Shown: piece after piece, positions 3,207 to 64,000 of the stretch
Numbering within the stretch: position 1 is the first letter of the stretch
Layout of the letters: each line of letters begins with the position of its first letter
Assembly (NCBI GenBank): GCA_034780895.1
Contig: JAUZTB010000107.1
Location: forward strand, 81,850,746 to 81,914,745
Direction: 5' to 3'
Origin: Rhynchobatus australiae
Taxonomy: Eukaryota
Length of the DNA stretch: 64,000 nucleotides
Made by a program: the position numbers and the translations under genes
Notes under the pieces: generated by a model
What the model was told of the DNA's origin: nothing
The model's input: only the letters and a program-made list of their open reading frames with translations
Database searches by the model: none

Positions 3207-3422
3207 ATGAATGATGGACAGTTCACAGTAATCCAGCTGGTTGGCATGTTGAGAGGGATTGCAGCTGGGATGAAGTATTTGTCAGAAATGAACTATGTGC
3301 ACAGAGATCTGGCAGCCAGGAACATTCTCGTCAACAGTAACCTTGTGTGTAAAGTGTCTGATTTTGGCTTGTCAAGGTTCCTGGAGGATGATGCAGCTGA
3401 TCCAACCTACACAAGTTCACTG
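3207..3422 (+). CDS. ephb3: EphB3 kinase catalytic and activation loop exon
   Basis: Acceptor ttgcAG and donor GTgagg; 216 nt; HRDLAARN and DFG motifs intact; ends ...DPTYTSSL. Confidence 0.97.
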
Positions 3423-4664: not shown

Positions 4665-4825
4665 AAAAAAAAACTGCAGTTGCTGTAAATCTGAAATCAA
4701 ACAGAAATTGCTGGAACCATTCAGCAAGTTAAGAGAAGCTGATAACATTGCAGGTTGGAGACCTTTCATTAGTTCTCCTTCCACAGATGCTGCCTGACCT
4801 GCTGAGTTTTCCAGCATTTTCTAAT
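4665..4825. mobile_element. Penelope-derived fold-back fragment
   Basis: agaaattgctggaaccattcagcaag is inverted relative to cctgctgagttttccagcattttct; decayed hammerhead-like core on the minus strand at ~4740-4775. Confidence 0.6.
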
Positions 4826-5306
4826 GTTATTGTTCACATTTTCCTCAATCCAGGTTGGATTGCTTTGAGTTCATTCTGGCATCTTGGATTTGGATTGGCT
4901 TGGGCAATCGTTTTGTTTTGATTCAGTAAAGGGATTCCACACACACCCCTCCCCCCTGCTTTGGCTCAATATTAGTATAAATGTATTTTTTAATATCGAA
5001 ATCCAAATACTGATTACCATGTTGACACCAAATTAAATCCAGCAGGAATTTAATTCTGAGTGAAATTATCAGTAAAAATCACTGACCCTCTATTACAGAC
5101 TCAGCTATATATTTTACTGCACAGTCTTCCCATGAGTAACTGTGTGCCCAGGCAAATCCAGAAGAGCACTCAGTTTACAAAAATCATCCCTAGCAATAGA
5201 ATAGACCCACTGGTAAACTGCTGGTGTTCGCTGACATTTTGTGTGTGCACATTCCCCAACCTAGCCCCGACAGCCAACATCATACATGCTCTGCATTCCC
5301 TTGCAG

Positions 5307-6505: not shown

Positions 6506-6600
6506 TTGTCCTGATACAGGGTCTCAACCCAAAACATTGACTATCCCTTCGCTTTCAGATGCTACCTTGACCCACTGAGTTCCTCCAGCAGCTTGCTTTT
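6506..6600 (+). mobile_element. Penelope-type terminal fragment with decayed hammerhead motif
   Basis: gtcCTGATACagggtctcaacccAAAACattgact...agatgctaccttgacccactgagttcctccagca. Confidence 0.6.
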
Positions 6601-16220: not shown

Positions 16221-16510
16221 TTTCATATTCTTATACTGGATACAGGACAACTAGATACCCACACTTGCTCGTTTAATAGTGACAGCTGATTGAAATGTGC
16301 TGAACTGAGGTTATCTCTGAAAGGCAGACATCTTTCAAAATGTCCTAACCTTATGATAAGAAGCAGAATAGCGGTAAATACATATCCAAGACTGAAGACC
16401 TGATAACAAGTCTTCAGTGTGGCTGACTTGTCCTGATATTGGTAAGCCCTATTTGTAGCATGCCTAAGTCTCCAATTTAATGAGGCATTATCAACCACAG
16501 AGGAGTTCTA

Positions 16511-17135
16511 CAACAAAAACAGAATGCTGGATGAAGTCAACAGATCAAGCAGCATCTGTGGAGGCAAGAGATGTCAATCAACTTTTTGGATCGAGAACCT
16601 GAATCAGGACTGAAAGGGAACCAGGAAAGATTACCAGTATATTAGAGTATGTGGGGGGGGTGGTGGTCGAGGTGGGGGTGGTGGTGTGTGCGAGGGAGAC
16701 TGATAGGTGATAGGTGGAACTAAATGGGAAGGAATTAATGCACAGATGGAACAAAGTGGGGGAGGAGGTGGGATAGAAGCCTGTGGGTATTGGTTGGAAC
16801 CAAATAGGGAGGGGATGATGGGTAGAAGGGACCAGGTGGGGGAGAAATGGGGTGGAACAGAGGCTGGTACGTGATATGGGGAGGGCATGATGAGCAGATA
16901 GAATCCAGTGGGGAAGAGGGGATGGGAGCAATGAACAAAGGAAGAAGATAACTAGGTGCACAGATAAGTGTGTGGGAGTTACCTGAAATTGGAAAACCCA
17001 ACATTCCCACCACTGGGTTATAAACTACCCAAGCAGAATATCAGATGTTGTTCTACCAATTTGCCCTCCCTGCTGGAGTTCTTCCAGCATTCTGTTTTTG
17101 TTCTAGATTCCTGCATCTGCAGTACCTTTTGTCTT
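16511..17135 (-). mobile_element. Penelope-like element remnant with GIY-YIG C-terminus and inverted termini
   Basis: Minus strand 17062-16979 reads KLVEQHLIFCLGSL*PSGGNVGFSNFR*, followed by a pyrimidine-rich tail and a hammerhead-like motif at ~16575-16612. 16512-16543 and 17071-17102 are inverted repeats. Confidence 0.75.
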
Positions 17136-19821: not shown

Positions 19822-20021
19822 AATAAGATATTTATTTATGAGTCACATATACATCGAAACACACACATCTTTGGAATGTGGGAGGAAACTGGAGAACCTG
19901 GAGGAAACCCACGCAGACACGGGGAGAACGTACAAACTCCTTACAGGCAGCAGCGGGAATTGAACCCAGGTCACTGGCACTGTAATAGCATTACGCTAAC
20001 CACTATGCTACCGTGCTGTCC
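19822..20021 (-). mobile_element. V-SINE with shortened L2-like tail
   Basis: Reverse complement of the head and core at 22195; tail end resembles the 27863 copy but lacks its middle part. Confidence 0.82.
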
Positions 20022-21108: not shown

Positions 21109-22194
21109 TTTGATAAGTTCTCAATCAACAGCTGTCGTTACCTAATTCCCCTCTCCCTTAACCTCCATAAGAGATTGCACATTAGTGTTGATTTTTGGTC
21201 CTAATGAACTGGGTGCATATTTCATGTGAAGCACTATCCACCGTGTCCCACTCTATTTGACACAGTTTAGGAGCCACTTGTTGCTTCCTCTGCCCGGTAT
21301 TTTATAAAGTACCCCTTTCAGATTTGCAGCTTTTCAAAAACATAGGTCAAGTGAAATAAAGCTGGAATCTTTTATTTTTACTGCAGCTGTAGTAACAAAA
21401 TCACAGTTAAAATATTCCAATGCTTTATTCCCTTATAATTGCCACCAAAGTTGCGAAACACCAGTGGCATTACATGAGGTGTATAAAAAATAGTTTCAAA
21501 AGAAAGTTGAGCAACCATTGTCTTCAGTCCATGTAGATCGCAGAGATATTGTAACTTCTCTGTTGCTATATTTACAGTAACTTCCCTCTGCTCAGTTATT
21601 TCTTGATGGCTTGCATGGTAGTGTAAAGAAATTCTTACATCAGCAAGTCTTGACAGAAATACCAGCATCCATATGAGTGAGAAGATAAAATACTGACAGC
21701 TGGATGGTTATTTATTATAAAGGTGTCACAAGTTGTGAAGTATGTATTGGATATTGCCAGCTTCAATAGTAGGTTTTAATATTATTTTGTTAATATCATC
21801 CCTTGATGAATTATAGTAATGTCTACTGAATGCTTGTGTGCACCTTCAGTTCTCTATAAATGGTTAGTTGTACCATGTCACCATCATAGAAGGAAATTTC
21901 TTTTGCGGAGAACTTAAAGCTGTGTCTAGTTTCTGCTCATAAATCTTGGGCAGGTTATCCAAAGTATTCCGCAAACTTAATTACTCAGAGCTATTGTTGG
22001 TGCACTACACCCACTTAACGTGCTTTCAGCCTTGTATTTATTCATCTTTTATTACCTCTATGGAAAACTGCTTGAATTTTGAAAGACAAATTCTTTTCAT
22101 TTCAAAGTTTTTTTTTTGTTAACCAATTGTATGCTGTTTATACAGCGTTTTGATACTAAATTTGACTGCTTAATTCTCCATAGTGAAACAAATT

Positions 22195-22440
22195 GGGGCG
22201 GCACGGTAGCGTAGCGGTTAGCACAACGCTATTACAGCACCGGCGATTGGGGTTCGATTCCTGTTGCTGTCTGTAAGGAGTTTGTTTGTTCTCCTGTGTC
22301 TGTGTGGGTTTCCTCCGGGTGCTCCGGTTTCCTCCCACATTCTAAAGACGTACGGGTAGCTTAATTTGGGGTTTTAAATAGGCGGTGTGGACTCGTTGGG
22401 CTGGAAGGGCCTGTTACCACACTGTAAATAAAATTTAAAA
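22195..22440 (+). mobile_element. V-SINE, young full-length copy, short CR1-type tail
   Basis: A box TAGCGTAGCGG at 22207-22217, B box GGTTCGATTCC at 22251-22261, V-core gggtttcctccgggtgctccggtttcctcccac, AT-rich tail; CpGs retained. Confidence 0.9.
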
Positions 22441-23074
22441 TGTAAAATTTTTAAAAAATTAAAAATTCAATGCAACAAGAATGGAGCCAATACAACATGT
22501 GAGCTTTACATGGAGTCCAACCAACTTTTATCTGAGCTGCTTCTCTGGGATAGTGCTGCAGCACATTGTTATCTGACCAACATCTGGAATTGCTCCATGC
22601 AACATTGACAGGCTCTTTGATGGATTGCACTGAGTCTGAGCAAAATGTGTTCAGGCGTTCTCACGTAGATGTTTTGATCAGCTTTATTTTTACACTTGGC
22701 AGAAAGCCATCAATGGGTTATCTTTGTTAATAAAATATCAGAAAACATAAACTATCAGATCCAGGTCACTGAAAAGAAAAGAATATCATATTATCACAAC
22801 ATCACTGCAATTAGGAAGTCTAGCTTCTAAGAATAAATTACCTAAGAACAGTTTGTAATAGTCTAAATGGAAGTGCTTATATTCAGTTTTCAGAGGTTAC
22901 TCATTATTATTGCTTCGAGTACAAATTTGGATGTATGAATAGAGAACAAGAGTTGGCATATTGTGTACAATTGTGGTTGAAAGAAATGGGAAAAGTTAAA
23001 GCAAAGTGTCAGAATGATAGAAATGTAAAAGCCTTTAGAAAAGCTCACTTACTAAGCAACCTTCAGAAACTCAT

Positions 23075-23186
23075 GACACAAGAAATTCTACAGATGCTGG
23101 AATCTGGAGCAATACACAAAAAGTGCTAGAGGAACTCAGCAAGTCAGGCAGCATCTCTGGAGGGAAATAAACAGACGACATTTCAG
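23075..23186 (-). mobile_element. Penelope-type terminal fragment
   Basis: Reverse complement of 32345-32456; ends inside the hammerhead motif and retains GAAA (minus strand ctGAAAtgTCgtctg). Confidence 0.72.
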
Positions 23187-23790: not shown

Positions 23791-24022
23791 TAGCGTAGCA
23801 GTTAGCGTGACACTATTACAGCACCAGCAATCGGGTTTGATTCCCGTCGCTGTCTGTAAGGAGCTTGTATGTTCTCCCGTGCCTACGTGGGTTTCCTCCG
23901 GGTGCTCTGGTTTCCTCCCACATTCTACAGACATACGGGTAGGTTAATACGGGGTTTAAAATGGGCGGCGTGGACTCGTTGGGCCAGAAGGGCCTGTTAC
24001 CATGCTGTAAATGAAATTTTTT
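23791..24022 (+). mobile_element. V-SINE, short CR1-type tail
   Basis: Close match to the 22195 copy along its length. Confidence 0.88.
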
Positions 24023-24989
24023 AAAAAGTTAACTCTTCACCTGCTGGCTTCTTTTCCTGCAGTTATGTCTGTTTCGTACACCATTGGAAGAACCCTCACA
24101 GACCTTGCTTATCCTCCGATGGAGTTCAGCAGTCCATTGCTTTGGAGAATCCTGCAATACACTGGTTTCATTGGCACACTGATAACATCAGCCTTAAAGG
24201 CACAGCATCCAAAACTTGATGTTGAAATTCATTACTATGTGAATTATCTTAACTTGCTTGCTCTTCTTCTGCTTGCTCATGTTGCAACTCAGGGAAGTGT
24301 TATCAGTTTTTTTTTTCATTTGTATTCCTGTATTTGTATGCTGTTATGTTTTCAGCATGGAATTTATGAAAATAATTCCTTACAACAGAAGCTGGAAAGT
24401 CTGGAAGAAAATGGTCGCAGTGATCACTAGGAATTTGACCATCCCAAGCACCACTTAAGCAAGAAGTTCAGTGAGATAATATGGGCAGAGTTTGTACATA
24501 CTTGTGCAAATAATGCAGCTCAGTACTCATATGCAACAAATACACGTTCTGCTCTTTGGGCAACATGCAGATGAAGCTGGTGAACAATGTCCAAGAGAGG
24601 TCACAGAGCAGCAGTGGAATGGCTGTAGCTAAGTGTGTGACCGAGTTTGAACAAAGGAGCACAGAGTGATAGACATGCTTCTACCATTGTGTCGGCCTAC
24701 AGCTCCGAAATCAGACTGATGAGTGGTGAGCACAAGACTCAGTCTGGTACTCTTCCAGTAAATCTCCTCAGCACTGAAAACAGTAAAAGGTAGAAATTCC
24801 CAGTGGTGGCATTGGGAAAAGAAAATAAAGTTAATGATTCAGGTTGATGAAAGGTGTTTCAAGCATTTTCTGTTTTATTTCTGATTTCTTTTTATTTTTG
24901 CTTTTCAGTCTTCTCCGTACCTCATCAAAGGCCTTTGCAATACTCAGCCTGGAAACTGGAGAGGTGGAAGTTCAGGGAAAATGCCTCAA

Positions 24990-25350: not shown

Positions 25351-25421
25351 ATGCATTNNNNNNNNNNCCCTTCTCATGAGACTGTCAGCAGATCACTGAA
25401 TTTGCCAGTGACGAGCCAGAG

Positions 25422-25615
25422 AAAGTAAGGGACTGCACTGCTAGGTAAGGGTCTGTAAAGTAAGGGACTGCACTGCTAGGTAAGGGTATGTAAAGTAAGG
25501 GACTGCACTGCTAGGTAAGGGACTGTAAAGTAAGGGACTGCACTGCTAGGTAAGGGTCTGTAAAGTAGGGGAGTGCACTGATCGGTAAGGGTCTGTAAAG
25601 TAAGGGACTGCACTG
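25422..25615. repeat. 35-bp minisatellite, at least 5.5 copies
   Basis: Unit gtaagggactgcactgctaggtaagggtctgtaaa starts at 25425, 25460, 25495, 25530, 25565 and 25600, then runs into a gap. Confidence 0.95.
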
Positions 25616-26031: not shown

Positions 26032-26220
26032 TAGCACACAAAGCTCTGGAGGAACACAGTGGGTCAGGCAGCATCCATGGAGGGAAATGGACAGTTGACG
26101 TTTTGCGTCGAGACCCTTCATCTGGTCCATTTCCCTCCATAGATGCTGTCTGACCCATTGAGATTCTCCGGCGCTCTGTGTGTTGTTCCACATTTCAGCA
26201 TCTCCATTCCCTTGTCTCTC
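26032..26220. mobile_element. Penelope-derived fold-back mini-element with central hammerhead-like motif
   Basis: ~60-bp imperfect inverted arms at 26034-26092 and 26125-26185; the spacer on the minus strand reads cCAGATGAagggtctcgacgcAAAAcgTCaactgt. Confidence 0.75.
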
Positions 26221-27862: not shown

Positions 27863-28153
27863 ATAAGATATCTTTATTTGTCACATGTGCATTGAAACAC
27901 ACAGTGAAATGCTCTTTTGCACAGAGTGTTCTGGGGGCAGCCCGCAAGTGTCGCCACGCTTCCGGCACCAACATAGCATGCCCATAACTTCCTAACCCGT
28001 ACGTCTTTGGAATGTGGGAGGAAACCGGAGCACTCAGAGGAAACACACGCAGACACGGGGACAATGTACAAACTCGTTACAGACAGCAGCGGGAATTGAA
28101 CCCAGGTCGCTGGTGCCGTAAAGCGTTATGCTAACTGCTACGCTACCGTGCCT
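27863..28153 (-). mobile_element. V-SINE with L2-like tail and 7-bp target-site duplication
   Basis: Same head and core as 22195 but a different tail; AACACAG flanks both sides (27856-27862 and 28154-28160). Confidence 0.9.
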
Positions 28154-31971: not shown

Positions 31972-32456
31972 TATTCCTTTCTCCCTTTCTTTTTCACCCC
32001 CCCCCCACTCCTTTGTCTTCCCTTATTCCCGTGGCTCCCTTTTCCCTGCCTTGATGACTTGCCCATATCCTCTCCTCCCGTCCTCCATCCTTTATTCCAT
32101 GGTCTACTGCCCTCTTTGACCAGATTCCTTCTTCTTCAGCCCTTTGCCCCTTTTACCTATCATCTCTCAGCCCATTACACCTTCTCCCCCTCCCCCTCCC
32201 ACCTACCATCCCCCCTCACCTGGNNNNNNNNNNNNNNNNNNNNNNNNNNNNNNNNNNNNNNNNNNNNNNNNNNNNNNNNNNNNNNNNNNNNNNNNNNNNN
32301 NNNNNNNNNNNNNNNNNNNNNNNNNNNNNNNAAGGGTCTCGGCCCAAAACGTCGACTGTTTATTTCCCTCCATAGATGCTGCCTGACCTGCTGAGTTCCT
32401 CCAGCAGTTTTTGTGTATTGCTCCAGATTCCAGCATCTGCGGAATTTCTTGTGTCT
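31972..32456 (+). mobile_element. Penelope-type 3' region: pyrimidine-rich tail, hammerhead motif, terminal repeat
   Basis: C/T-rich 31972-32223, gap, then aagggtctcggcccAAAAcgTCgactg...agatgctgcctgacctgctgagttcctccagc; same layout as the 16.5 kb element. Confidence 0.75.
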
Positions 32457-33699: not shown

Positions 33700-33882
33700 C
33701 AGAGGCTGGATATCGGAAATAAAAACAAAAGTGCTGCAACAGTAGATCAAGCAGCATTGTGGGATGATAAACAGAGTTAATGTTTCATGTTGAAATGGTG
33801 AAAGATCATCGACCTAAATTTATTTTTCTCTCCACAGGTGGTGACTGGCCTGAGCATTTCCAGCACTTTTTTATTGTAATAT
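33700..33882. mobile_element. Old Penelope-derived fold-back fragment
   Basis: aaaagtgctgcaac...caagcagcattgtggga is inverted relative to tccacaggtggtgactggcctgagcatttccagcacttttt. Confidence 0.5.
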
Positions 33883-38471: not shown

Positions 38472-38762
38472 TAAGATATCTTTATTAGTCACAGGCACAT
38501 TGTAATGTGCAGTGAAATGCATCTTTTGCATAGATGCTGGGGGCAGCCCACAAGTGTCACCATGTTTCCGGCGCCAACATGGCATGGCCCACAATTTCCT
38601 AGCCCTTACATCTTTGGAACGTGGGAGGAAACTGGAGCACCCGAAAGAAACCCACGCAGACACAGGGAGAACGTACAAACTCCTTACAGACAATGGTTGG
38701 AATGGAACCCGGGTTGCTGGCACTATAATAGTGTTATGCTAACCGCTACACTACCGTGTCTG
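38472..38762 (-). mobile_element. V-SINE with L2-like tail
   Basis: Colinear with the 27863-28153 copy. Confidence 0.88.
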
Positions 38763-41700
38763 CCCACACTCCAAGAGGATGACTCCTCTGTCTCCCCTTG
38801 AAGTCTTCATCATCATAGATACCAGTATTCAACCAATTTGCTTTACTTCATGCGCCATTGAAAAAAAAGGACTGTGTACATTAGATACAGCAAAGCTCAA
38901 GGAAGCTAGAAACATTAGGCCTGTGACTGCTGAAGGACAGTGCTCCAGGGCTAGCTGCACCCCAAGTTAAGCAGTGCCTAGATACAACTAACTTCTCCTC
39001 ACCAATGCGGAAAGTGGCTCAAGTATGTTTAAAAAAAAGTAGAACCAGTCCAAGACAGTCATATCCCAAACTTCCTTCAGTTTATTAGAACACTTCAGTG
39101 ATGTCACAGAAAGAGTCATTAAAGTGACCAAACAGCACTTAATAAAACACAGAATAATTTGCTCAGCAATGTTTTGCTGACATTTCACCAGAAGCATTTG
39201 GGTGCAGACTTCATGTTTGCCTGGTCCAAACATGGATGTAAGGATTGAATTTCAGAGGCAAGTTGGAATTGAATGCCCTAAACATCAAGGCAATGTATGC
39301 CAAGTGTAGTATCAGGGTGCCCCAGTGAAACTGAAGTCATTGGGAACAGGGTGTGGGGAGCTCTCCATTGCTGAAGGCAAAACTGGCACAAAGGAAGGTG
39401 ACTGTAGATGTTGGCATTACCCACCTATGACAATCTTTCCTTTTTACCTGAAAGTAAGGTACATGTCTATGAGCATGAAGTTTAATTATTGGTTGTATCA
39501 CGTGGTCAATTATTATAACATTGCATTTACCATACTCTAAGTTCTATTGAACATTGACTGCAATAAATAGTCATGCTCCCCTTGATTCTCCAGGCCCGAG
39601 TGAGTTGTATAATACTCCACTGTACAGTGCAAATAGAATGCAAATATACTACAAATGGCATTTGGGTTCATCTGTGGTTTGATTTTGTGCAGATGGAAGC
39701 TTTCTTGACTTTCTTTTATGTTCTTCTTAAAGCACTTTAATGAATGCTGTAATTAATTCAGCATCTATCACTGATTTTTGGTCAGGCATTTCACATTTCA
39801 ATAACCCTGCAAAATATAAATTTTCTAATCTCTTCTGTTTCTTGTCCTCATCCTGAGATCATAACCTGGCTTCAATTTACCTACCAATCTAAAAAAAATC
39901 CTGAAATTTATGTGAGTCATAATCCAATCTTGAATTTTAATGCCCTCTGTACTCCACTCCCTTCCCCTCTCTTTAAACTTTATTTCTGGTTTGTGCTTTC
40001 CCCAAGGGACCAGGAAACCACAACATCAGGATTCCGCATAAAAGGTTCCATATCCCAGTGGTTCCTAGGGTTCGGGCTTCAGCTCACAAACAGTACATAT
40101 TAGGCAGCCCTGGTTTAAAATGATTACAAAATTTAATCAAGACAGCATTCTTTCTGTCTAAAATTGGTTGTCACACCAATTATCCTTGGGTAAAATGAAT
40201 TAATAAGGACTGAGTGCAGATTAAATATTCTTGATGAATAGCTTAAATAAATGGAACAAAAGTTGTTTTAATCAGAGTTATGCTTCAACTAAGTATAAAA
40301 ACATTGTCCTGACAATTCCTAATGTGAGTCATGCTGCTTGAAGTCTTGCATAATACAAATACTAGTGTAATTAGGCAATTTGGAACTAGCTGAATTGGAC
40401 TTCCGGCTGAGTGCCACCCAATGCTTAAAATTTTAGCTGAAAACTCATATTAGCCTTGGCTTGTGAACTTGAAGTACAATAAGCCTAGATATTGGATTGC
40501 ACCTATTTCTGGTGTGATCCTGTTCATTTGTTTAGCACTTGCACGTAATCACGTTCCACCTCAAGAAAATCCTGAAGCTTGCAACAACATTAGGATGTTT
40601 TACACCCAGAAATGTTAAAACAGGGCCTGTGTGGTTTTAACAGGACCACATTCAATTCAGTGCAGCTGTTGACTCGTTGCTGTGCAGCAAACAGACCAGG
40701 GTGCCAGTCCTTAAATGCATGCACCCAAGGCAGTACAAAACAGCAACACACATGTTGGCCAACGTGGAGGAGAGAATGACTCCAGGGGAGAGAAGGGGAA
40801 AGATCCCAGATCTCCACGAGGGTCATTGTAATGTACAAAGTGAGCAACACTACCTGGACAATCAACTGATGCCAAAAATAAATTATAATCCTGCAAGATA
40901 AGGTGATCTTAATATGGTAAATACAGACATACTCTCCCTTACTCCAACTGTTAATCATACAACTCTTTACTCAATCTGCAACCCTTCCTCTCCCATACAA
41001 TGCTCATCCCAATCCACCATTGACATTCTGCCCCTTCCATTCCCCAGTCAGATTTCAACGGTCCCAAGGTCAGGTAAGGAAACAATCACTTAATGTCCAT
41101 CGATTTTCTCCATGTAAGGCATGCATCAAGTATTAGGAAGCAGGCAGCCAGAACAAAAAGGAGCCCCTCTTAAGTCCACTGTCTTACTAACTGGAGAGAC
41201 CATCCTTCTCCTCAGAGGCACTTGTGCCACAGAAATGCAAATGACCTCATGAGCAGATGCAGTTTGATATCTGCCATGTATTCTGGAAAGAACCATTGGT
41301 TAACTGTGCAGCTTTGTACTGCACACTCATGACTTCTGTGCTGTGGAGAAGGATGGAATGTGTTGGCAGTCAGGTGTAGCTACATCAGATCTGCTTCATT
41401 ACTGGACTCTGCACTGAGTCCAGGGCAGAGCTTGGTTATGCTGAGCTGAGGAACTATGTGCTCCTCATCTCTGGGCCCTTAGCTGTATGTCAGCCATAGC
41501 TGGTGTATCCAATGCACTCACATGAATGTGGTCACCAACTGGGATGGAAAGGAAAGTGGTTTGGTATTCTCTTTATATTGATCAATATTAATGTTTTAAG
41601 TATTTTATATCAGTGAAATTTTTTTCATAAATGATTTGGTAATTTTTAAATTGTTTTAATAACTGCTAAAATTATTTGAATGTGTTTCAGTTGTTTTTAA

Positions 41701-44700
41701 ATGTTGGGAACAATCGAAAAGCAGGAGCTGTCAACAGACCATCAGGGGTGGTCCAGGGTTGAGTCTCAAGCAAGACCAGCTGAGCTAGGTGCTGCTCAAA
41801 GACCACTTGCTTCCTGGGGTGGCTGTGGCAGTAATACCTGCAACTCAGTTGGACACATCAGGCTGTGGAAGGATAATTTAGCAATAGGGATTGTGCAANN
41901 NNNAACAGGAGGCATATTTTTTGCCAAACACAATCAAGCCCAGTGTTTCGTTGTGATTACAGCATTCCCTTTGAAATAATCTGTGGTAAATATCTTCATT
42001 AATATGTGTTAATTACAAAGGTGTTTGGAGTGCACCTTATCAGGTAAAGCACCTTGTTTTGCCTTTGCCAGATGCAAGGAAAGTTTCACTAATTTCACAA
42101 TCATCAGAACAGCATGAATTGGACAAGGAGCATTGGGAGAGATGGAGAAGCACAAAAGGAGAATGATTGGGCAGGAGGAGATGATGATGATGATACTCAC
42201 AGTGTGTTATTATGCCTGAGTCCTCATAGTACCACCTCAGAGACCTGTATATTTTGAGAGATGAGCAAAATTCCTTACACCTTGTTCCACTACTGCCTGG
42301 TGTATCTCCCCATGACACACTTCAAAACTGTTTTGCTCATCTCTCAAAGTACTGGTCTTCTGAGACTGCTTTGAACTCAATATATGACACCATGGATAGT
42401 GCAATCAATTATGTCATTGGATGTGATCATGGGAAAAGATCAGGTACGCCAACTTGGATCTTGACCACAAGTGGTGCATTTCCCCTGGAAATCATCATTA
42501 ATGCAATTTACTCAGAGTAAAATTGATGGTGGATTGGATGATACTTCAGCATCACATGATTCAATTTTTAAGATAAATTACCCAAGTGTCGTAGGCATTT
42601 TTAAACTGGCTGGTGAAACAATCATGAAAGTGGATTTAAAGTTAAGTTATTTGGTTGAATAAAAAGGAAGAATTATAGAAGACAAGTTCTCTCACTATTA
42701 TAAAGTATGACTAGAAATCTATTAATCTGCAGAAGATATCACAACCTTTGACATTGTCCTTCACCATGGAGGTCAGTGACTGTTAAGTTATTTCATCCAA
42801 GAAGTTCTTTGGTGAAATAAGTTACAACTGCATCAGAAAGTTGTGCCATAGTGAACATTGAAAATTGGATCCAGAACTAGTCTGGATATTTATAGTGAAG
42901 TTCGTAATAAAGGAGGGTTCAGTCAATCTTCCCTTACTCTGCCTTATTGAGTTCATGACTGTTTTCAATAGCGATTTTCTTGTGGAGCTGTTTTCTGATG
43001 CAATTGAAGACAATGTAGTTGGAGTTATTCACTTGTACAAGTGGAACCTGAAATACCAGATCTTTATTAGACAATCAGTAGAGATAATTAGGATATTTTT
43101 TCAATGAGTAAGTTATTCTTAACTGGATCCTGTGGTATAAAGGAAGAGAGGAAATAATATTTCTTGTCTCAATGGTCTCTTTCATTATATCTTGCAAATT
43201 TGTGAACAATTGGTGACTTAGAGAGTGATCATACATGATTCATTACTGGTTATGTCATAATGGAAATACATTTCCAACTTACAAGTATAAAGCTTGTTTC
43301 TATTAATTAAGTCCTGAGAAGGTCTCTTGCAGATTAAAGGTATTTAAATGGTTACAGTTGCTGCAGTGACGAACAGGTTATGCATAAATGTATACAGAGA
43401 TTGCAATTGCATTGTAATAAAAGCACAATGTCTTATCTTCCATCTGAAGCACTTCCCTATTTCCCTGTTTTAATTCTGTTGCAAAAGCTAAAGCAAAGAG
43501 AAGAGTTCAGTGTTTCTTGTGAGTGGGATCTTACCATGCATACATTTCAAAAAGCATTTAGCTAAAAGGGGTTATTCTGCTTCTCATCAGAACACAAATC
43601 CAGGTGCCTCCAAGCCTATCAATATCTCTTCTGCATTTTTCTTCCCAAATCTCTTGAAAATGACAGAGGAAAAGAACTACAATTACAGAACCCTATTTGA
43701 TTTTTAAGTTGCCTCTGGTACAGAGAACATTGGATGAACAATTGCTTCATGAACTAAGGATGTGAGGCATTCCTTGGGTGCAGAAAATCTGTGATTGGTA
43801 TCTATCATACAAAAGTGTTTGACTATTTTACTAAATGGAAAGAACTGTAAAACAGATTGAATTAAAATGATTATGTTAAAGGGTTAAAGTCTAGCTTGCC
43901 TCTAAAGACTAAAATAATTGTAATTAAACAATTGGACCTCCCGATTTCTTACAGATGGGACAATAGTGGCAGTTGTTATCTCAAGTCAAATCCTTCAGTA
44001 AATATCCACACCAGGGTTGCTGAGATGACTCTATTTGGGAGGGTCAGTTGCCTAGGCAGCATGTTGAGAATCTGCTCTTTCTGAGCAGGCTATTGGACTT
44101 GATTNNNNNNNNNNAGTTCTGATTAACAAGCCTGGAGTAGGGGCAGTGAACAGGAACCAAGCCCCACTTACTGTGCTTGGAAAAATAAAATGCATTGGCA
44201 GTCTCTTTATCAAAGAATGTGCCATTTGGTTTTTTTTTAACACTGAGCTTGAAACTGAAGTAAAGCGGTTCAGTTCTTTGCATCTGGAGAGTGGCCAGAA
44301 AAGCAAAAACAACAAACCTTCTACCCTGTCATTCAAAAGTAGTTTTATGTCATGGAAGTGTTTTTACAAATCCTGGAAATACTATCTTGCTCTATCCTAA
44401 TAAGTAAGCCAGCTTCTTGATTTTACATTGACCTTATTTCACCTAGGTATGTATCAGTTCTGCTACTGGATGATTGTAGAAAGGCATGCGTGAAGGATAT
44501 GGAGTGGGACCTTGTTAAATTCCCTAGGTTACTCTATCTTATAAGTAAACATTATGGAGCATGAGGTAACTCCAGAGCACAGGAGAAATAGGATCTACAT
44601 ATGGCAGAGACGATTGACATTAAATTCATTGTGGATCTGAAACTGTACCTTTGTTCAATTTCATGATTACTTTTTAACAAATGGGGTTTTAGATGCATGC

Positions 44701-46791
44701 AGAATTCTGTCACCACATTTAAGGGCGAATATAAGCTACCAAGAAATTCACACAAGTGACCAAATGGCAATTTTTGCTTAAATTTCTTGTATGCTTTTGT
44801 TGTATTCTTACGCACATAGATTTTTCTAAGCTCACTGGATCAGCTGCCAACTCACTCTCCAGACCCCAAGGATGTCATCATGGATATTAAGAGGGCAGCA
44901 GACAAATCACTAACTGGCAGTAGATCAGAAGGGTTCTTTTGATCACAATTGACATTAATGCTCCTCCTTGCAGATGACTGCAAGCCGTTGACCCATCTTC
45001 CTAATGTTCCCCCTGGCTTTGCGATGCAGCAAATCAGGATCTACCTTTGCAGCAGGGCTCAATTGTGCCATAACTGTAACTACACTGCAATCTTGCCTGA
45101 AAGCAGTCCTACCCTTTACTTTAACAGAATGCTGAGTAGCTGTTAGGTTTTTGACCACTTTTTGTGATTTCGGTTGCTGATGAAATCATTGACCATCTTG
45201 AGTTATTCAATCCTTGCTGTGGGCAGTAATTGAGATCCAGTCTCAGCTTCAGGGACATCAATATCCTTATGTCTCCACCATTTTAGAAGCAGTAATAGTT
45301 TAAAAAAATGTTCTACGTTCTTTAAGAAAAGCACTTCACAGAATTCTCATAAACCCATTGGTTCTCAGCATTATTTAGAACTGCCAATGATTTGACTTGT
45401 ATTGCTGCACTTATAAAAGTTTGATTCCCTCCACAATTACTTTTGTTTAATCATCACCGAACAAAGTATTTAGAAATAAAAGATGGTATTAAGTTAATTT
45501 CATGAAGATAAATACCAGTGCTTTGTTATTTTTTTATGAATTGTGGATTCCTACCATCAGCAAATGCTCTTCTTAAGTCAGAAATGCATTTAAAAGAAAA
45601 TCAAATTTGGAAATGTTGATAGTGGCATCAAAATTCTTCAGCTACATGTGACATGCAATGTTCAAGCAATAATGGCATGAATAATCGCATAATTTGAAAG
45701 AATGTTTCTGAGCATGAACTTGTTTGAGTGTGACCCAGATGAAGTTGGCTTTTAATGAGATTCTACACCACTTTCATACATGTTGTGTCCAAAGCTTGTG
45801 TATAACAAAGAATATTGATTTATTTATAGACTAACTGGGTACTTGAGCAATGGGTACTGTACAATGCTGTTTTAGTTCTTGGATAAGAATTTAAGATTTG
45901 TCAGAGGTATGCAAGTTTTGGCATTTGCCATCAATTGTAAACCGAGCTTCAGCTTCTTTGTATCAATATCTTCATCGTAATTGAATTGATGAATCTAACC
46001 TGACGTACTGTGAATGAAATTGCATTAGGATGTGATGAAAATGATTGTATTTACTCAGTAATTTACAGCTTATGTTTGTGTTCTTTTATCTGTTGCCCGT
46101 AGTTATTTCATTTTGAAAGGTTATCTCCAAGCGCTTTACTAAGAGAAGAAAATGAGCAGGAGTAGGAAAGAAAAAACCTGGCAGTTGTTTTGCGAGAAAG
46201 AATGGGACAGTTATTTTAAGATTATGAAGGATTAGGGAAATGAACTAAAAGAGCAGTTGAAGGGTAGAGGCTGGATTCTGTGACAAAGCTGCAGCCAAGC
46301 AAAGTGGCAATGATTGGGTAATCCCCCACGTCAATTAGACTTTGTGACACTGTGATAACTGCCTGAGATTAATAACTATCCTTCACTCTTAGTATTTTTC
46401 TGGATAAATTGTTCTGCTTTTACTGAGAGGATTTGCTATCGTTAGTCTGAAGAGAAAATAAGCTTTGGACAGTAGGAGGTAAGTTGAAATGAATTTGCAA
46501 ACTCTTTGAGTTTGGAAGGCCAGCTGTGGAAATGGGTGGGAAAGAGAAGTAAAGGAGACCAGACTGGTCTTAAGAGGACTGAATTTGATAGGAGCAGGTG
46601 CNNNNNNNNNNNNNNNNNNNNNNNNNNNNNNNNNNNNNNNNNNNNNNNNNNNNNNNNNNNNNNNNNNNNNNNNNNNNNNNNNNNNNNNNNNNNNNNNNNN
46701 NTAAAGGAGACCAGACTGGTCTTAAGAGGACTGAATTTGATAGGAGCAGGTGCAACATTGGGGCAGGAATGTGATGCTAGGCACACACAGG

Positions 46792-46893
46792 AGTCCTGAT
46801 GAAGGGTCTCGGCCCAAAACGTCAAATGTTTATTTTCCTCCAGAGATGTTTCCTGACCTGCGGAGTTCCTCCAGCATTTTGTGTGTATTGCTG
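46792..46893 (+). mobile_element. Penelope-type terminal fragment with the best-preserved hammerhead motif
   Basis: agtcCTGATGA(46796-46802)agggtctcggcccAAAAcgTC(46822-46823)aaatg followed by the terminal repeat. Confidence 0.75.
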
Positions 46894-47214
46894 CAGGTGG
46901 TAACAGGCATCACCCTTCCAAGTTTTCTGCTTTCTCTGGTACAATGCAGTATGACGTTAAGCATGTTCACAGAAGAAATGTGATGTCATTTAATCATACA
47001 CTGGCGACAAAAGAGAATGTCTTTCTGCAATCTGTGCTTGTTGGCTTCGTTGCTGCATCATGTGAGGTTATCAGTGTTGTGGTTTGAAGCAAGAGGTTTG
47101 AGGAGCAACAGAAGCTGATGTGCCCAATCTTTTGCTCCACCAGTATTTACACCCTCCTCCAGAGCTTTCTCCCTTGTCACTGTAGATCACATAGTTAGAA
47201 GCAACTCCTAGCTT

Positions 47215-47750
47215 AGTCCTAAAATAAAGACAAATCGAGGGAATATATTAGCAGGATTGAAGAGTGAGTTAATGAATGTAACAAGAGTTGGATTAAATTA
47301 ATATTTTTTGGAATGGCAACCATGAGGATTAGTGTTTGAATCTGAACTATTGGAAGTCTATACCAGTGATTTGGAGAAGGAGGATAATAACAAAATAAGA
47401 TCCCATTTTTCCATTAATACAAAGCTAGGTGGGAAAGTTAAACTGTAAGACTTGGTAAAGGATATAGCATGGTTTAGTGGGAAAGAAGGTATTAGATGGA
47501 ATGTAATATGGAGAAGTGTGAAATTATTCTCTTCGAGAAGAAAACTAGAAAAATAGTATCTTTTTAAAGTTGGTATTCAGAAGTTAACATGCAGGTACAG
47601 AATTAAGAAAGCAAATTTTATGTTAACTCTGACTACAATATGCTGCAATGTAAGGGTAAGTAAAATTTTCTGCATTTATATAGGACAGGTGTAGTCTCAG
47701 CATACTTGGTGTACAGTTTACAGTTTTGTACTTTGTACATAAAGAAGATA
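47215..47750 (+). mobile_element. Highly decayed CR1
   Basis: atacaaagctaggtgggaaag (TKLGGK), gatggaatgtaatatggagaagtgtgaaatt, aacatgcaggtacag...aagaaagcaaat. Confidence 0.55.
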
Positions 47751-47804
47751 CTTGTTTAAGTATGACTGCAGACTTGAAAGCAAAGATCTACACTGATTCT
47801 TCAG

Positions 47805-48123
47805 TGATGCTCTTTCCTGTCTGAGATGATAAATCAAGGTCCCATCTGTTTTCCCAGGTGAGGGCAGTAATCCAGCAATAATCCCCTGACTATACAATGC
47901 AAGAATATTCAACAGTAATTCCTTTTGAAGAACTGAAGTTAATCTTGGGGCCCTAGCCATTCTTTTTCCCTCAAAAATTATTACGAAAATGTTGTTGTTG
48001 TCCATAACTTGATTGCTGCATTTGGCATAGTTCAACAGTTACTATACCTACTGCTCCATTCACCCTAAGGCACAGTAGGATGTCATGAAAGGAATACACT
48101 TTGTCAGTACAAGTCTTTCTTTT
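47805..48123 (+). mobile_element. Degenerate Deu-domain SINE (AmnSINE1/SacSINE1-like)
   Basis: gatgctctttc..gagatgataaatcaaggtcccatctgttttcccaggtg and tail caacagttactatac...tcatgaaagg...caagtctttcttt resemble the DeuSINE core and tail as recalled; no alignment run. Confidence 0.45.
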
Positions 48124-48713
48124 GTTCTAAAATCCAGACATGCCAAACTCCTTGCAGCATATATTGATGGTGGAATAATGACCAATGCTTTTAAGTGTAC
48201 AAGAATTGCGTTGAAATTAACGCTTCTCTCTCTGGTTGGACAGCACACAGTTCATTTGTCAACTGTGTAGGTGTGCACTACAAAGTCTTGAATAGACTTC
48301 GTAATGCTAATATAATACCCTGGGGAACAAGATAGTGTCCCACCCCTTCCTTGACGATGTAATGCTGCATATCAGTTTTTGACTCCACTCTTTGTAATTG
48401 TTCAGCATAATGTTCTATGGTTTAAGTTGTCATGAAGATTTGTGGCATTTGGGTCTTACTGTAACTAATTATTTATAGATGATTTTGATGTCTCGGGTTG
48501 TTATCTATACAGACAATGCCCTAAGGCTAATGAAAAGAATACATCTTGTTTTTATTAAGACTTGCAAAGTAGCTCAATGTCTTTAAATAACATTCATACT
48601 CTTCTTTTAGCTAAAGGTTAACAAAGGATTAAACCTCTGGGGATTTTCATATGCTTGTTTTTAAATATCACTGAAACATGAAAACCATTGTGAAATACAG
48701 GCCTAATTTTTCA

Positions 48714-48910
48714 TAGAATCAATCGTAGTGATTCAACGTAGAAGGAGTCTCTTTGTCCCATTGTGCCTGTGGTGGTTCTTTGAAAGAGCCATTTAAATTG
48801 TCCACTCTACAGCTTTTCCTTTCCCTCCCCTAGCACGGGAAATTTTACTCATTCAAGTATTTATCCAGTTCCCTTTTAAAGTAGTAATTGGCTCTGCTTT
48901 CACCATCTAT
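48714..48910 (-). mobile_element. CR1-type 3' end
   Basis: catagaatc tail, ttcaagtatttatccagttcccttttaaa...tctgctttcaccat. Confidence 0.55.
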
Positions 48911-50097
48911 CCATTCTGATTCCCTTGCCTATCACAAGCCTATCTAGAACAATCAACAGAAGCCAAAGATGGGTTTTCACTGGGAAGCTCTTGCGCAGGA
49001 CAATTCTGTAAAAGGCCATAGCAGAGGTAGACGTGTTGGGACTATGATAGGTCACTTTGGATCTGTAGCATGTATTTTATGAGGAGAGAAATTGGGGAAA
49101 ATTCTACTTCACACCACATGTTTTATTCAAACATATGTAAAGAAATTGCACATGTGTACATCTTCTTTCCTTTCTCTCTCCTTTTCTATCATAGTGGTGA
49201 TCTGTGACAGGCGTACACAATGAATCACTCTTCCCCAGCAAAACTTATTTCATGACCGCGTGGTCTATTCATTCATCCAACGTTCACACAGGCACACTTC
49301 TGAAAGAACGAGACTAAACAATAATACTGAGAGGCCAGTCTGACTTGCTCTCCTTCCCCTCCTCTCTGGGATTCCTGTGGCAATTTTAAATTCCCACTCT
49401 TGCTGTTTGAGAGATAGACAAACTTACCAGAAATCATTACTGCACTATACTGTCCATTTACTCGCTAACTCTCTTGGGCTTTGCAGAGAGCAAAAGAGAT
49501 GGAACGCCCTGAAAATCATACATTGAAAACATCCCATCAGAAAAATTCACCATGTTTTAAAATCTAGAATATGGCTCCAGCTGACTAATTTAGTAAAACA
49601 AAATTTACTAACGTGACAAATCCCTCCTCATAAGTAACATTTTGGTTTGAAGATATCTTTTTGACTAGCATTGCTTGGAAAAGATACTCAGCCTGAAATT
49701 CTTCAGGGCTAATTATTATAACTCCAGTGATTCTGATGAAAAATTCTTTGAAAATTTAAGGTGAATACAAATTGAAAGTCTTGTCTGATGAAGGGTCTTC
49801 TGGCTAACGGCTGAATTTCCTTTTTGTAAAGTGCAAAATTCCAACCATCAATTCCCCCTGATTTCTGACCACACTTGCCTTGGGCTGTTTGGGGTTGGAG
49901 GTGCCAAATGAAATTCTGTTAAAAATCACAACCTAGGATGCTCCTGAAGCAGGGTGCTTTTTCCCTTGCTGGAAGGGGGGACTATCAGAGAACCCTGCAG
50001 CAGTTATGGTAATCTTGAAACTTCATGGCCTCACCACCCATCTTACTTCCATCTGTTTCTCATCATCGCTCCATTGCTCTTTTAACTTTGTATCCAT

Positions 50098-50176
50098 TTC
50101 AGAATCAGAATCAGGTTTATTACCACTGACACGTGTCATGAAATTTGTCGTTTTGCGGCAGCAGTACAGCGCAAGC
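50098..50176 (-). mobile_element. LINE 3' end with (TCTGAT)n tail
   Basis: tcagaatcagaatcaggtttatt, i.e. AATAAA plus a short tandem tail on the minus strand, typical of L2/Rex1-type 3' ends. Confidence 0.55.
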
Positions 50177-51820
50177 CACAAAAATTGGAAGTTTGTAATA
50201 ATCAATGACTTAACATCACGGAAATTTTACAAATAATGATAATAGGAATATGGGGCAAAAGACAAATGGCTAGAAATTGGATTGCGTAGCACCACTTTCT
50301 AAGCACTAGACGATTTAAAAAATAAACAAGAATGAAGATTTGGTGACTGGTTGTGAGTTTCATGAAATCCATGATGCTTCACCATGATCCTCCATGTGTT
50401 TGATGTACTGGTACATGCATGAACCTGTTCCTGCTTGTTGGTATCCAGTGGTGTGCAACATCCAACCTGGCTGCCATTTGCTGGGATTTTCATCCATTCA
50501 TGCACCAAGTGTGGGGCACTTGTGCTGAAGCAAGCCTTCAGAGGTTTATTTCAGCATTAGTTAAAGGAGACCCAAATAAACGAATCCCAATTATGAGCAA
50601 CAATGCTGTAAATCTACCTTGGGTTGGTTGTAATGTAGCTTTAAGCACAGGGTATCACTGCCTTCTTTGTCCCTGTATGTTGTTCATGTTTTACTCCTAT
50701 TGGGCAGCAGAATCATGTGCTTACTTTTCAACAATGTATCAATTACGCAGACATACAGTCTGCAGCAGGATTATATATGTATTTTGTATCTCCATGAAAT
50801 CATGAAAGCATTACGTTGGGTTCCTTGGAAGGATATAATATAAATATCTGACTCTCTCTTGGGGAATCCCCACCCCAGTAGCAATTTTCACTTCCTTTCC
50901 AATTTCACAACTGCTGACCAGTCAACTCATACCCTACTTTTCTGCCAGTCTCTCTAGCTACCCCTGAATGAGCCAATTCTTGACACCTGATTTCTTTTGC
51001 AGCCTCCGCGATCCCCCGATGTAAGACATGTTCAGTAATGCACAGCGCCTTTGGGCTCATGTGCTAATGAAATTCCCAGTGACAGGTCCTGGAGCAAACT
51101 TTCTTTGGTCTACTGTGAACCCTAATGGTTTATTGCATCATTTCAGTTTTTAGGCACAAAGGGTATTTGGCAATCAGCAAATATCTTCCAGAAAATAGAT
51201 GCATACAACAGATGGAGGGATTTCTATATCTACAGCCCTGTAGACATTACTAACATTTTACCACCTTCAACAGACTGGTCAAGGTGACTGAAGATACAAG
51301 AACCCTAGCAGAGTCTTAAGACTTGTGTTAGAACTGTGATTCACTTCCATTCTGTCCAGGATCACAATGTAGACAAAGGAATGAATATGGCCATTTTCAG
51401 ACAAAATAAGAACACATTTACCTTCTCACGTACATCACCACTCCTACTATTCCAGTGTTCCAAATCACACTTTCTCAACTGTTTGACCATAAGAACTACA
51501 GATTTTCTATTCTTGTACACGAAAGCATGTGCACAAGCGAATATGTACAGTCATTTTGGTGAAAAGGCATAATAAATGAGTCTAAATCTTGACATTCCTT
51601 GTGAAAGGGACTCACTTGTATAACCAGATGAAGGAATGGTTGGAATTGGCTACCACACGAAGGATGAAGAGCACACAGTAGACTGAGAAGTTGGAGGGCA
51701 GCAATCAGGTTCCTCTTGGTAACTGGATGGAAGGTTTACACAACATCCTCAGCTTCTGTTAAGTGAAAGGTTTATTTATATCACACACCTTGAGTTGTAA
51801 AATGTGAAACAAGTGTTACA

Positions 51821-51953
51821 GGATTCTGATGCAGGATCTTGACCTGAAGCGTCGACTATCTCTTTACCTCTACAGATGCTGCCTGACCCCTGAGTTCCTC
51901 CAGCAGTTTGTTTTTGCTTCAGATCCAAGCATCTGCAGTTTTTTTGTGTTTCC
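51821..51953 (+). mobile_element. Penelope-type terminal fragment with hammerhead-like motif
   Basis: ttCTGATGCaggatcttgacctGAAGcgTCgact...agatgctgcctgacccctgagttcctccagc. Confidence 0.7.
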
Positions 51954-52374
51954 ATGAAACACATGTTTATGCTTTGACTTGCGCAGTGCATTCAGCAAGA
52001 TTAACAGGAAAGCATAGGTCTGTAATTGCAGTAAAATTGAAACGGGCCATGTCAAGACACTAAATATCACACTGTTTACATAAAATTATCAATAGCTTGG
52101 CAGCAAACAAATTAACTGGGCATATGTTTGAATAATCAATTAAAATCTCTAAACTAAAGTCAAATATCTGAAGAATATTTTTATAGAAAGTGTCATATTT
52201 TAACATGAAAAGAATGCTATTCAGATGCAATTCTTGATTTTGGCTATAATTATTCTGAATGTCTTCAAGAACAGGTGCAAAGCCCATCTGAGATGGTGGA
52301 AAAAAATATAAGCCCAGTGAGTCTATTAACATATCCCATGAAAGTTCTGTTATTTTAGCCACATGAATGATAGA

Positions 52375-52490
52375 AAACTGGAGGGCTCTGTGGGAGAGAA
52401 GGGTTAGAGATCTTAGAGCAGGATAAAATGCTGGCACAACAGTGTGGGCTGAAGGGCCTGTATTGTGCTGTAGTGTTCTATGTGCTGTGT
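52375..52490 (+). mobile_element. CR1 3' end
   Basis: ggcacaacagtgtgggctgaagggcctgtattgtgctgtagtgttctatg. Confidence 0.65.
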
Positions 52491-52834
52491 TCTTTGAATG
52501 GGTTGGCTTCATTGTCATCAGTACAAATATGTTTCAGGAACAAGGTTTGCCCTGCAGCAACATGGGCATGTGGGCACATGTNNNNNNNNNNNNNNNNNNN
52601 NNNNNNNNNNNNNNNNNNNNNNNNNNNNNNNNNNNNNNNNNNNNNNNNNNNNNNNNNNNNNNNNNNNNNNNNNNNNNNNNNACATGTGTCAGAGCTGAAA
52701 GGATGCCTGAAATGGTCTGAATTCTGGTTCTGGTTCAGTAAAGCTGTAACAAATTGAGATTTGTTGGTTTTCACTGCAGGATCACCTTTTAAGGGTAAGC
52801 AGATTGTGGTTACACTGCAGTAGTTCATATATAT

Positions 52835-53640
52835 AGTATTTATTTGGATGAGAAGGTAGATGGCTTTATCATTAAGTTTGTGGATAACTTTAGAATCAGG
52901 AGTGTAGTGGACAGTAAAGAAAGTTGTCCAAGGTTACAAAAGGATCTAGATCAACTGGGAAAGTGGGCAAAGGAATTGCAGCTATAATTTAACTTAGACA
53001 AGTGTGAAGAGATGCATTTTGGGAAATTAAGTCGTGGCAAGAGCTCCACAGTAAATAACAGGGTTCTGGGTAGTGTTGTAGAACAGAGAGACCTTGGCGT
53101 GCAAGTGCAGAGCTCTCTGAAAGTGGTGCCACAGGCGGATAGGATGGTGAAGAAGTTGTATGGCATGCTTACCTTCATGGGGCAATGAGTAAGAGAGTGG
53201 GGATGTCATGCTACAGCTGCATGAGATGCTGGTGAAACCGCACCTGGAATATTGTGTGCTGTTCTGATTGCCATACTATCAGAAAGATGTGATTAAATGC
53301 AGAAAAGATTCACAAGGTTGTTACCAGGATTGGAGGGATTCTAAAACCAGAGGGCAGAGGTTAGAGGGGAAAGATTTAAAGAGAACCTGAGGGGTAAGTT
53401 TTTCACACTTACAGAGAGTAGTGGGTATATTGGAAGGAGCTGCAAGAGGAAGTGGTAGAGGTAGGTTCAATTACAACATTTAAAATACATTTGGACAGGT
53501 TCATGGATAGAAAAAGTTGAGCGGGACATGGGCCAAATGCAAGCAAATGCGAATAGCTCAGGAAGGTGTCTCAATTGGCCTGGACAAGTTGGGCTGAAGG
53601 ACTTGTTTATGTGTGATGTAACTCTTTGACTCTATGAATC
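52835..53640 (+). mobile_element. CR1 LINE 3' portion
   Basis: IKFVDN (FADD-like), FNLDKCEEMHFG, EQRDLGVQV, LVKPHLEYCV and the 3' tail gactctatga; internal deletion near 53340. Confidence 0.88.
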
Positions 53641-54409: not shown

Positions 54410-54912
54410 TCCATCTTTGTCTATTTTGACCCTTTCATTTTGTTATGATATCCCTTATATATGGTCTCCTCCCCCTCCTGTCACCTACCCACTCCACCTC
54501 CCTTATTTGGTTCACCTTCCTTTGCTATCATATTCTGTCATCAGCAGCCCTTTGTTGCCTCCACCTTTCACCTCACAGCCTCTGTCACTATTTCCCACTC
54601 TTCCCTTCTCCATCGTCCTTTCACCCCTCCTCACCTGGATCCACCTAATGCTTGCTGGCTCTTGCTTCACCCCTTCCCCTCACCTCTTTATACTGGCCAT
54701 CTCCCTTTATCTCTCAGNNNNNNNNNNNNNNNNNNNNNNNNNNNNNNNNNNNNNNNNNNNNNNNNNNNNNNNNNNNNNNNNNNNNNNNNNNNNNNNNNNN
54801 NNNNNNNNNNNNNNNNNCTCTTGCTTCACCCCTTCCCCTCACCTCTTTATACTGGCCATCGCCCTTTATCTCTCAGTCCATCTGAAAGGTCTCCATCTGA
54901 AGTGTTGACCGT
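54410..54912 (+). mobile_element. Penelope-type pyrimidine-rich 3' region with decayed hammerhead motif
   Basis: C/T-rich tail ending tctcagtccatctgaaaggtctccatctGAAGtgttgac; homologous to the minus strand of 16575-16960. Confidence 0.62.
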
Positions 54913-55090
54913 CCGCCTTGTGGTTTTGTTTGATTTTATGACTAATTGAACCTATTCACAGCAGTGCTAGATCTGACCTGGGAATTTTGCTCAAAGCTAG
55001 TAGTGGCTTGAATGTGCTTCATGACAAATAAAGTTTGGATGTAGTTGAAATAGAGTATAGAGGAATCTCAATGTTTCTCAGTCTCAAAAA

Positions 55091-58439: not shown

Positions 58440-58560
58440 AAATTCCACAAATGCTGCAAATCTGAAATAAAGTCTTAGTGAAAGGTCATTTTCTTGAAAC
58501 TGTTTCTTTTTCCACTGATGCTGCCTGACCTGAGCACTCCTAGTGTTTTAAGCATTTTTT
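58440..58560. mobile_element. Old Penelope-derived fragment
   Basis: cacaaatgctgcaaatctgaaataaa followed by gtgaaaggtcattttcttGAAAc...gatgctgcctgacctgagc. Confidence 0.5.
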
Positions 58561-63703: not shown

Positions 63704-64000
63704 GGGCAGCACAATGACACAGCTAGTAGAGCAGCTGCCATGAAACAGTAGAGAGCTAGGTTCAATCCCAACTTCAGTGCTACCTTTGTGAAGTTTGCAC
63801 GTTCTCCCTGTGACTGTGTGGGTTTCTTTTGGGTGCCCTGGTTTTCTCCCATGTCTCAAAGATGAATGGGTTGGTAGGATAATTGGCCACTATAAATTGC
63901 CCCTAGTGTAAAAGTGAGTGGTTGGAGGAGTTAATGAGAATGTGGGGAAAGTAAAAACAAATGGGATCAATGTAAGATTTGCGTAAATGGGTTGTTGATG
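63704..64000 (+). mobile_element. V-SINE (HE1-like), long tail, cut by the window end
   Basis: Colinear with 18757-19105; GGTTCAATCC B box and V-core. Confidence 0.82.

Follow-up and report, generated by a model that had tools for sequence, protein, structure and literature searches.

A dispersed minimal hammerhead in the Rhynchobatus australiae genome belongs to the pLTR of a probable Neptune-type Penelope-like element, whose copies often begin at the front of stem I

A 64,000-nucleotide stretch of the Rhynchobatus australiae genome (hereafter the window) contains, at positions 46792-46896 of the plus strand, a short repeat with the parts of a minimal hammerhead ribozyme. The locus raises the question of what kind of element the repeat belongs to, and whether the ribozyme cuts the RNA from which such copies are made. 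In the numbering used here N1.1, the base 3′ of the predicted cut, is +1; C3 is -28 and the A of stem I at position 2.4 is -32.

The copy at 46792-46896 is a pLTR fragment extending from -32 to about +73, and comprises the hammerhead and downstream pLTR sequence without the tail. The 5′ strand of stem I (2.4-2.1) occupies 46792-46795, 46792 being the putative transcript start. The next segment (46796-46803) consists of the intact CUGAUGA box (C3-A9, 46796-46802) and an extra A, after which stem II (46804-46815) forms four base pairs, one of them a U-G wobble, closed by a loop of four nucleotides. The segment 46816-46823 contains the GAAA box, the palindromic ACGU (46819-46822), directly visible and replacing helix III, and C17 (46823). 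The core is broken by a G12 to A change at 46816, a product of CpG decay. The 3′ strand of stem I (46824-46828) is mutated at 46824 and 46826, and formation of stem I is not predicted. The motif itself is real: the hammerhead layout described in an earlier sequence-only reading of the window is present at 46792-46828, with three damaging changes (G12 at 46816, and positions 46824 and 46826). No target-site duplication was detected for the copy at 46792-46896. The G directly 5′ of its first base (46791, plus strand) is typical of copies starting at -32, and is uninformative for a single copy. Upstream, a run of 100 N (46602-46701) is flanked by a near-identical stretch (46702-46752 on one side, a stretch ending at 46601 on the other), which may be an assembly overlap.

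The abundance of the repeat was estimated in the 2.23 Gb assembly to which the window belongs. A descriptor of the core alone had 3,996 matches (54 in the controls), and a 32-mer from the downstream part had 6,971 (control 0). The flanking DNA (398 kb) contained 128 fragments, the reversed control none; this corresponds to roughly 0.7 million fragments genome-wide, a rough extrapolation from flanks that come from one contig and lie near picked copies. In 184 copies picked independently of the core, the CUGANGA and GAA core, A15.1-U16.1 and H17 are the majority bases, and all core bases are likewise in the majority in 81 copies of an older subfamily. The consensus core proposed earlier has 218 exact matches in the genome (control 0), but it represents one young subfamily, because opposite U10.4 most copies have A (128 of 184), and G is found in 50. 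The older subfamily is distinguished by U2.1-A1.1, by U17 and by U11.1 facing A (38 copies) or G (31 copies). Old-type copies, such as the one at 2753-2850 of the window, carry the triplet GUU where the cut is predicted, and their loop II has five nucleotides. GUU is a weaker cleavage triplet.

Profile searches detected 16 fragments of this repeat family in the window, compared with one and zero matches in the reversed-window controls. Ten of the 11 places pointed out previously are among them. The remaining one (54875-54914, plus strand), a heavily decayed copy with a pyrimidine-rich upstream stretch, is weak (E 0.12) and lies outside the 16. The young type is represented by two copies with tail on the plus strand, 32332-32456 (5′ part masked by N, G12 to A) and 51825-51944 (decayed core), by two further copies with decayed core, 6508-6595 (plus) and 16505-16620 (minus), and by 23074-23185 (minus), which is truncated at -10 and lacks CUGAUGA. 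Two of the copies listed earlier are thus unable to show the CUGAUGA box, this last one and the one at 32332, where the upstream sequence is N-masked. To the old type belong a decayed copy at 58476-58556 (plus), a fragment at 24769-24850 (minus), a fold-back at 4694-4831 (4694-4776 minus, 4772-4831 plus) and another at 33713-33877 (33713-33793 minus, 33796-33877 plus); the fragment at 24769 and the fold-back at 33713 were absent from the earlier list. A head-to-head fold-back with two arms occupies 26034-26206 (26034-26127 minus, 26125-26206 plus), and a fragment at 17069-17132 (plus) consists of downstream pLTR and tail without hammerhead. The old-type copy at 2753-2850 (plus) lies between two kinase-coding frames of an EphB-like gene.

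None of the 16 fragments has an intact hammerhead core; all are decayed, as the sequence-only reading had noted. An Rfam scan of the window with E up to 10 gave eight matches and no hammerhead family, the window copies all being decayed, and by the Rfam models none of them is a canonical hammerhead with closed helix III. No PLE protein match was found inside the window. The window copies are 5′-truncated, decayed insertions in which the ribozyme is likely a passenger.

Other features of the window were recorded alongside. Plus-strand frames at 469-831, 2365-2676 and 3153-3440 encode an fn3 domain and tyrosine-kinase pieces; the best match of the frame at 3153-3440 is to EphB receptors, and the repeat copy at 2753 lies between two such frames. 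A second dispersed repeat family (19865-20015, 22194-22436, 23833-24019, 28001-28151, 38608-38758 and 63772-63884) presumably resembles an elasmobranch tRNA-derived SINE. A tandem array at 25387-25615 has a 35-nt period with 15/20-nt sub-units, and a longer repeat present in two copies (11386-12081 and 52829-53634, 71-77% identity) possibly represents LINE 3′ ends.

What connects the repeat to a known element is its neighbourhood. One locus first showed a GIY-YIG-like frame upstream of the motif, whereas long open frames reported at first proved to be mostly runs of N. Forty-six GIY-YIG loci were then examined, 21 of which were unreadable (N or contig ends); in 24 of the 25 readable loci the repeat is located downstream of the GIY-YIG region on the same strand, at a distance of 250-1,090 nt, mostly 520-630 nt, and in one it is missing. 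The ORF contains reverse transcriptase (RT) motifs, DKG, a CX4CxxC linker and a GIY-YIG of CCHH type. Full-length homologues of the ORF are 36-39% identical and carry RVT_1, one of them also GIY-YIG. Pfam searches with the decayed copies of this genome gave GIY-YIG with an E of 0.0034, below the curated cut-off, and no match for the RT copy itself; a PDB sequence search with the RT fragment returned nothing relevant. At the other end of the ORF, the repeat or its tail runs into the N-terminal frame in four loci (L332, L333, L334 and L335), and the ORF start region matches the N-terminus of a homologue (E 1e-4). L335 is a nearly whole unit with the hammerhead repeat at its end. In L332 (1859-2270) and L334 (2614-2956) we observed internally deleted elements, in which the tail and about 130-150 nt of the ORF start are joined to a second terminal repeat.

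The single ORF with RT and C-terminal GIY-YIG, the pLTR at both ORF ends, the inverted 5′ copies and the optional tail of 30-40 bp are those of an EN+ Penelope-like element. Because the repeat is linked to the RT and GIY-YIG ORF at both ends, we identify it, from its sequence context, as the pLTR of such an element; the Penelope origin, an assumption of the sequence-only reading, is now shown by this linkage. DKG, the CX2-5CxxC linker and CCHH in the endonuclease are motifs of the Neptune clade, the linker being common to Nematis too, and by the motifs given in 10.1101/2021.04.23.441226 the element appears to be of Neptune type. An intact full-length element with both hammerheads visible was not found among the loci. 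At 30 loci around the DKG region an upstream hammerhead on the same strand was absent because these loci are 5′-truncated. The AUG inside the CUGAUGA box opens an upstream frame of 21 codons, and the first AUG of the main frame is at +23.

The copies drift neutrally. The CpG at G12 was found as TG in 57, CA in 56, CG in 50 and TA in six of the 184 copies, the same spectrum as at three other CpGs, and all four decay alike; this bears out the proposal that the recurrent GAAA to AAAA change is CpG decay. Non-CpG positions of the core are 89.9% conserved, compared with 87.9% at other positions. Intact cores were observed in 42 of the 184 copies where 33 were expected, a small excess that can be explained by mixed ages, and purifying selection on the core was looked for in this sample and not found. 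The copies are neutral debris. Covariation of stem II had been claimed between copies. Among copies its pairs do not exceed shuffles (p 0.16-0.90), only pair 2.1-1.1 of stem I doing so (p 0.002); the claim holds only between the two subfamilies, which differ by two compensatory pairs (2.1-1.1, C-G to U-A, and 10.1-11.1, G-C to A-U or G-U), a weak covariation that spans two lineages only.

Structure prediction for an intact copy gave helix I (4-5 bp) and helix II, the palindrome standing where helix III would be. For the monomer the predicted fold has the core shut (-12.7 kcal/mol, compared with -10.5 kcal/mol for the open form), and the double-hammerhead dimer (-16.1) is predicted to be less stable than either a plain duplex (-29.9) or two monomers in the shut form (-21.6); folding z-scores are unremarkable (-1.0 to -1.6). 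These predictions fit the low activity reported in PMC4209133. The earlier statement that palindromic variants cleave as dimers was too strong: in PMC4209133 cleavage of dimers or trimers was low and none was found for monomers, and the single element that has been reconstituted required its protein for cleavage (PMC11167929). The shut monomer and the unfavoured dimer, together with U at position 17 in the old subfamily and the report that eight of nine Xenopus retrozyme dimers remained uncleaved (10.64898/2026.07.22.740005), would also suit a motif that is non-catalytic even in the master element and serves as a hammerhead-like promoter, translation or protein-binding element. We regard this as unlikely, since the core bases are all in the majority in both subfamilies and the corresponding anole motif cleaves in the presence of protein and responds to mutation and rescue of C3/G8 (PMC11167929). 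That the master element encodes a functional ribozyme is our inference.

The ends of the copies offer a different view of the ribozyme. After removal of 67 copies that were core-picked or came from ORF-picked loci, and of 23 that were masked by N, 115 of 205 copies were left. The 5′ ends of 35 of these fall at -34 to -26, i.e. at the front of stem I, with the mode at -32 (11 copies). The 5′-end hazard in this interval is 5.8% per nt, as opposed to 0.8% elsewhere (p 1e-15), and the cluster is broad, spanning 9 nt. At the cut site (-3 to +3) the hazard is 0.5%; a 5′-end peak at the cleavage site was looked for among the 115 copies and not found. Two copies outside this set, L116 and L129, begin at +1; they are inversion joints sharing stem I microhomology. 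Counts of the first mismatch genome-wide (529 at -32, 665 at -33 and 349 at -34) show only a moderate peak.

Copies starting at -32 are preceded by G more often than expected. Of the 50 fetched copies that have a purine at -33, 45 are truncated there; G precedes -32 in 33 of the 45, with a background of 38% (p 1.5e-6), the excess being modest relative to the -34 control among truncated copies (33/45 compared with 8/17). A hand count of the first 100 of the listed places gave G in 69 at -33 and in 42 at -34 (p 2e-4). Target-site duplications were found in ten of 22 non-inverted readable copies and in nine of 462 controls, in a search that allowed one mismatch and extra bases (exact search found little); the flanks therefore consist of target DNA and short additions, and the added bases end in G in eight of the ten copies with duplications. 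In 20 of the 45 copies starting at -32 an inverted arm lies upstream. The sequence around -32 agrees with the initiator pattern YYANWYY, and a weak TATA-like word, TTATT at -29, is present in 36 of 70. For L1 and SVA an untemplated G has been read as a cap signature (PMC4859970). Copies that end at the front of stem I with an extra G, and not at the cut site, suggest that transcription starts at the ribozyme and that the templates are uncut, the G probably deriving from the cap.

Splicing to an acceptor at the front of stem I, or stalling of RT at the hammerhead fold, could produce the same 5′ cluster in the same element. The upstream sequence can be read equally well as such an acceptor, with a branch-point-like word at a distance of 28 nt, a polypyrimidine tract and a CAG whose end is at -31, and the width of 9 nt would suit either process. 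In D. virilis helix I marks the end of an intron (PMC4209133), and the start site is located further upstream (PMC2377424). Against splicing, the 45 truncated copies share no common upstream exon, their flanks contain target-site duplications, and the preceding purine is G in 33 and A in 12. Exon ends prefer A over G at the corresponding place. Against stalling, a polymerase moving 3′ to 5′ would reach stem I at +5 and not at -32. We therefore consider splicing or stalling unlikely, and prefer a transcript start at stem I.

Among 286 copies the 3′ ends form two groups some 33 nt apart, one at about +63 to +76 and the other at about +102 to +109. The pattern matches the tail (30-40 bp) and the pair of internal initiation sites described for the anole Poseidon element PAc, for which uncut RNA was the main substrate (PMC11167929). 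By the model of PMC4209133, the ribozyme would cut tandem transcripts and unit RNAs would be religated to circles that act as templates, the cut being rejoined. Circles also predict what we see in most copies, namely that they span the scissile bond, and retention of the motif in two subfamilies with compensatory pairs is in keeping with such a use. But a circle has no 5′ end, which leaves run-off at -32 with an extra G unexplained. No same-strand pair of intact cores within 3 kb was found among 129 cores in the fetched loci, and insertion in vitro was unaffected by ribozyme mutants (PMC11167929). Circular templates are thus quite improbable here, and linear, uncut templates are favoured. Fold-back joints (L116, L129, L121 and L203) often use the complement of stem I as microhomology; the ribozyme's own stem may guide template switching at these joints.

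In RNA reads of a related organism the repeat appears on both strands; 95% of the reads continue into unrelated flanks, and neither starts nor ends form a pile on the repeat, a result that is uninformative as to cleavage. The raw reads left the unique DNA of the window at 40000-52500 uncovered. The presence of the family in these reads, its very high copy number and fairly fixed ends might indicate that the short copies propagate themselves as a non-autonomous, retrozyme- or SINE-like family, or that some were co-opted as host ribozymes. Reads of this kind are, however, what passengers of host transcripts would give, tandem arrays were absent from the fetched loci, the core has no excess conservation and the sequence upstream of -32 is missing from the short copies. 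Self-propagation or co-option is accordingly the least probable of the readings considered, and the short copies are better seen as truncated products of the Penelope-like element.

The element is a further member of the known Penelope-like elements with minimal hammerheads (PMC4209133). Such motifs were described there in fish Neptune elements, mostly as solo truncated copies, and also in Xena and Poseidon. In common with them, the motif lacks helix III, has a palindromic 15.1-16.1 and an extra base after A9, G10.1-C11.1 in the young subfamily and a helix I of 4-5 bp, and is located in a pLTR whose copies are mostly solo and truncated. It differs from them by the U17 and the A-U or G-U at 10.1-11.1 of the old subfamily, and from the Schistosoma motifs, whose helix II has 7-8 bp, by a helix II of 4-5 bp. 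One searched supplement file of PMC4209133 contained no cartilaginous-fish entry. Like PAc, the element has the hammerhead at the junction of pLTR and ORF, apparently uncut templates and, downstream of the cut, 3′ ends of two classes separated by about 33 nt (PMC11167929). The PAc ORF starts 26 nt before the cut, whereas the AUG at that place opens the 21-codon upstream frame here, and the linker here is of Neptune type. With the EN+ elements of the Neptune clade (10.1101/2021.04.23.441226; PMC3846280) it shares RT, the linker zinc finger and the C-terminal CCHH GIY-YIG as well as 5′ truncation, inverted pLTR copies and the optional tail, and the comparison, made by motifs, revealed no difference. 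Non-LTR retrozymes (PMC7229834; 10.64898/2026.07.22.740005) likewise have a type-I hammerhead and are related to PLE pLTRs, but they form tandem arrays of mostly canonical motifs, whereas here the motif is minimal and its copies stand alone or inverted; no tandem units with intact hammerheads occurred among the 129 cores of the fetched loci. In the literature searched, which included few subscription journals, we found no description of this family or of a start site at helix I.

Taken as a whole, the explanation that we consider probable is a hammerhead in the pLTR of a Neptune-type PLE, with transcription starting at stem I, internal initiation of reverse transcription and an uncut template. 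The element RNA would start at the first base of stem I, the hammerhead thus forming its first 37 nucleotides. Reverse transcriptase would initiate at internal sites, some 70 or 105 nt beyond the predicted cut, pass the uncut ribozyme and often run off the capped 5′ end of the RNA, yielding stubs of 100-140 bp and fold-backs. For copies with a more upstream 5′ end, the template would be the 3′ repeat of a read-through RNA. Cleavage by the master element would need a dimer or help from a protein, and its effect would be to detach the capped leader, not to produce the template for insertion. Points against this explanation are the width of the 5′ cluster, the acceptor-like sequence upstream, the weakness of the TATA-like word and the lack of a pile of starts in the RNA reads.

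A more tentative proposal, possible though not likely, is that the hammerhead acts as an off-switch. Placed in the first 37 nucleotides of a capped mRNA, it would not be a processing enzyme; the element's own protein might bind downstream, and cleavage would then strip the RNA of its cap and upstream AUG and so limit translation, the uncut RNA being what is copied. If this were true, the transcript start and both start sites of reverse transcription would have been recorded in vivo in the 0.7 million stubs. The motif itself is known biology, and the added value lies in the statistics of the copy ends. The function of Penelope hammerheads has been called unclear (10.1101/2021.04.23.441226). The copy ends lend in vivo support to the in vitro result that uncut RNA is the template (PMC11167929), and they predict an exact transcript start, the first base of the ribozyme. 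Such end statistics make the role of the Penelope hammerheads testable.
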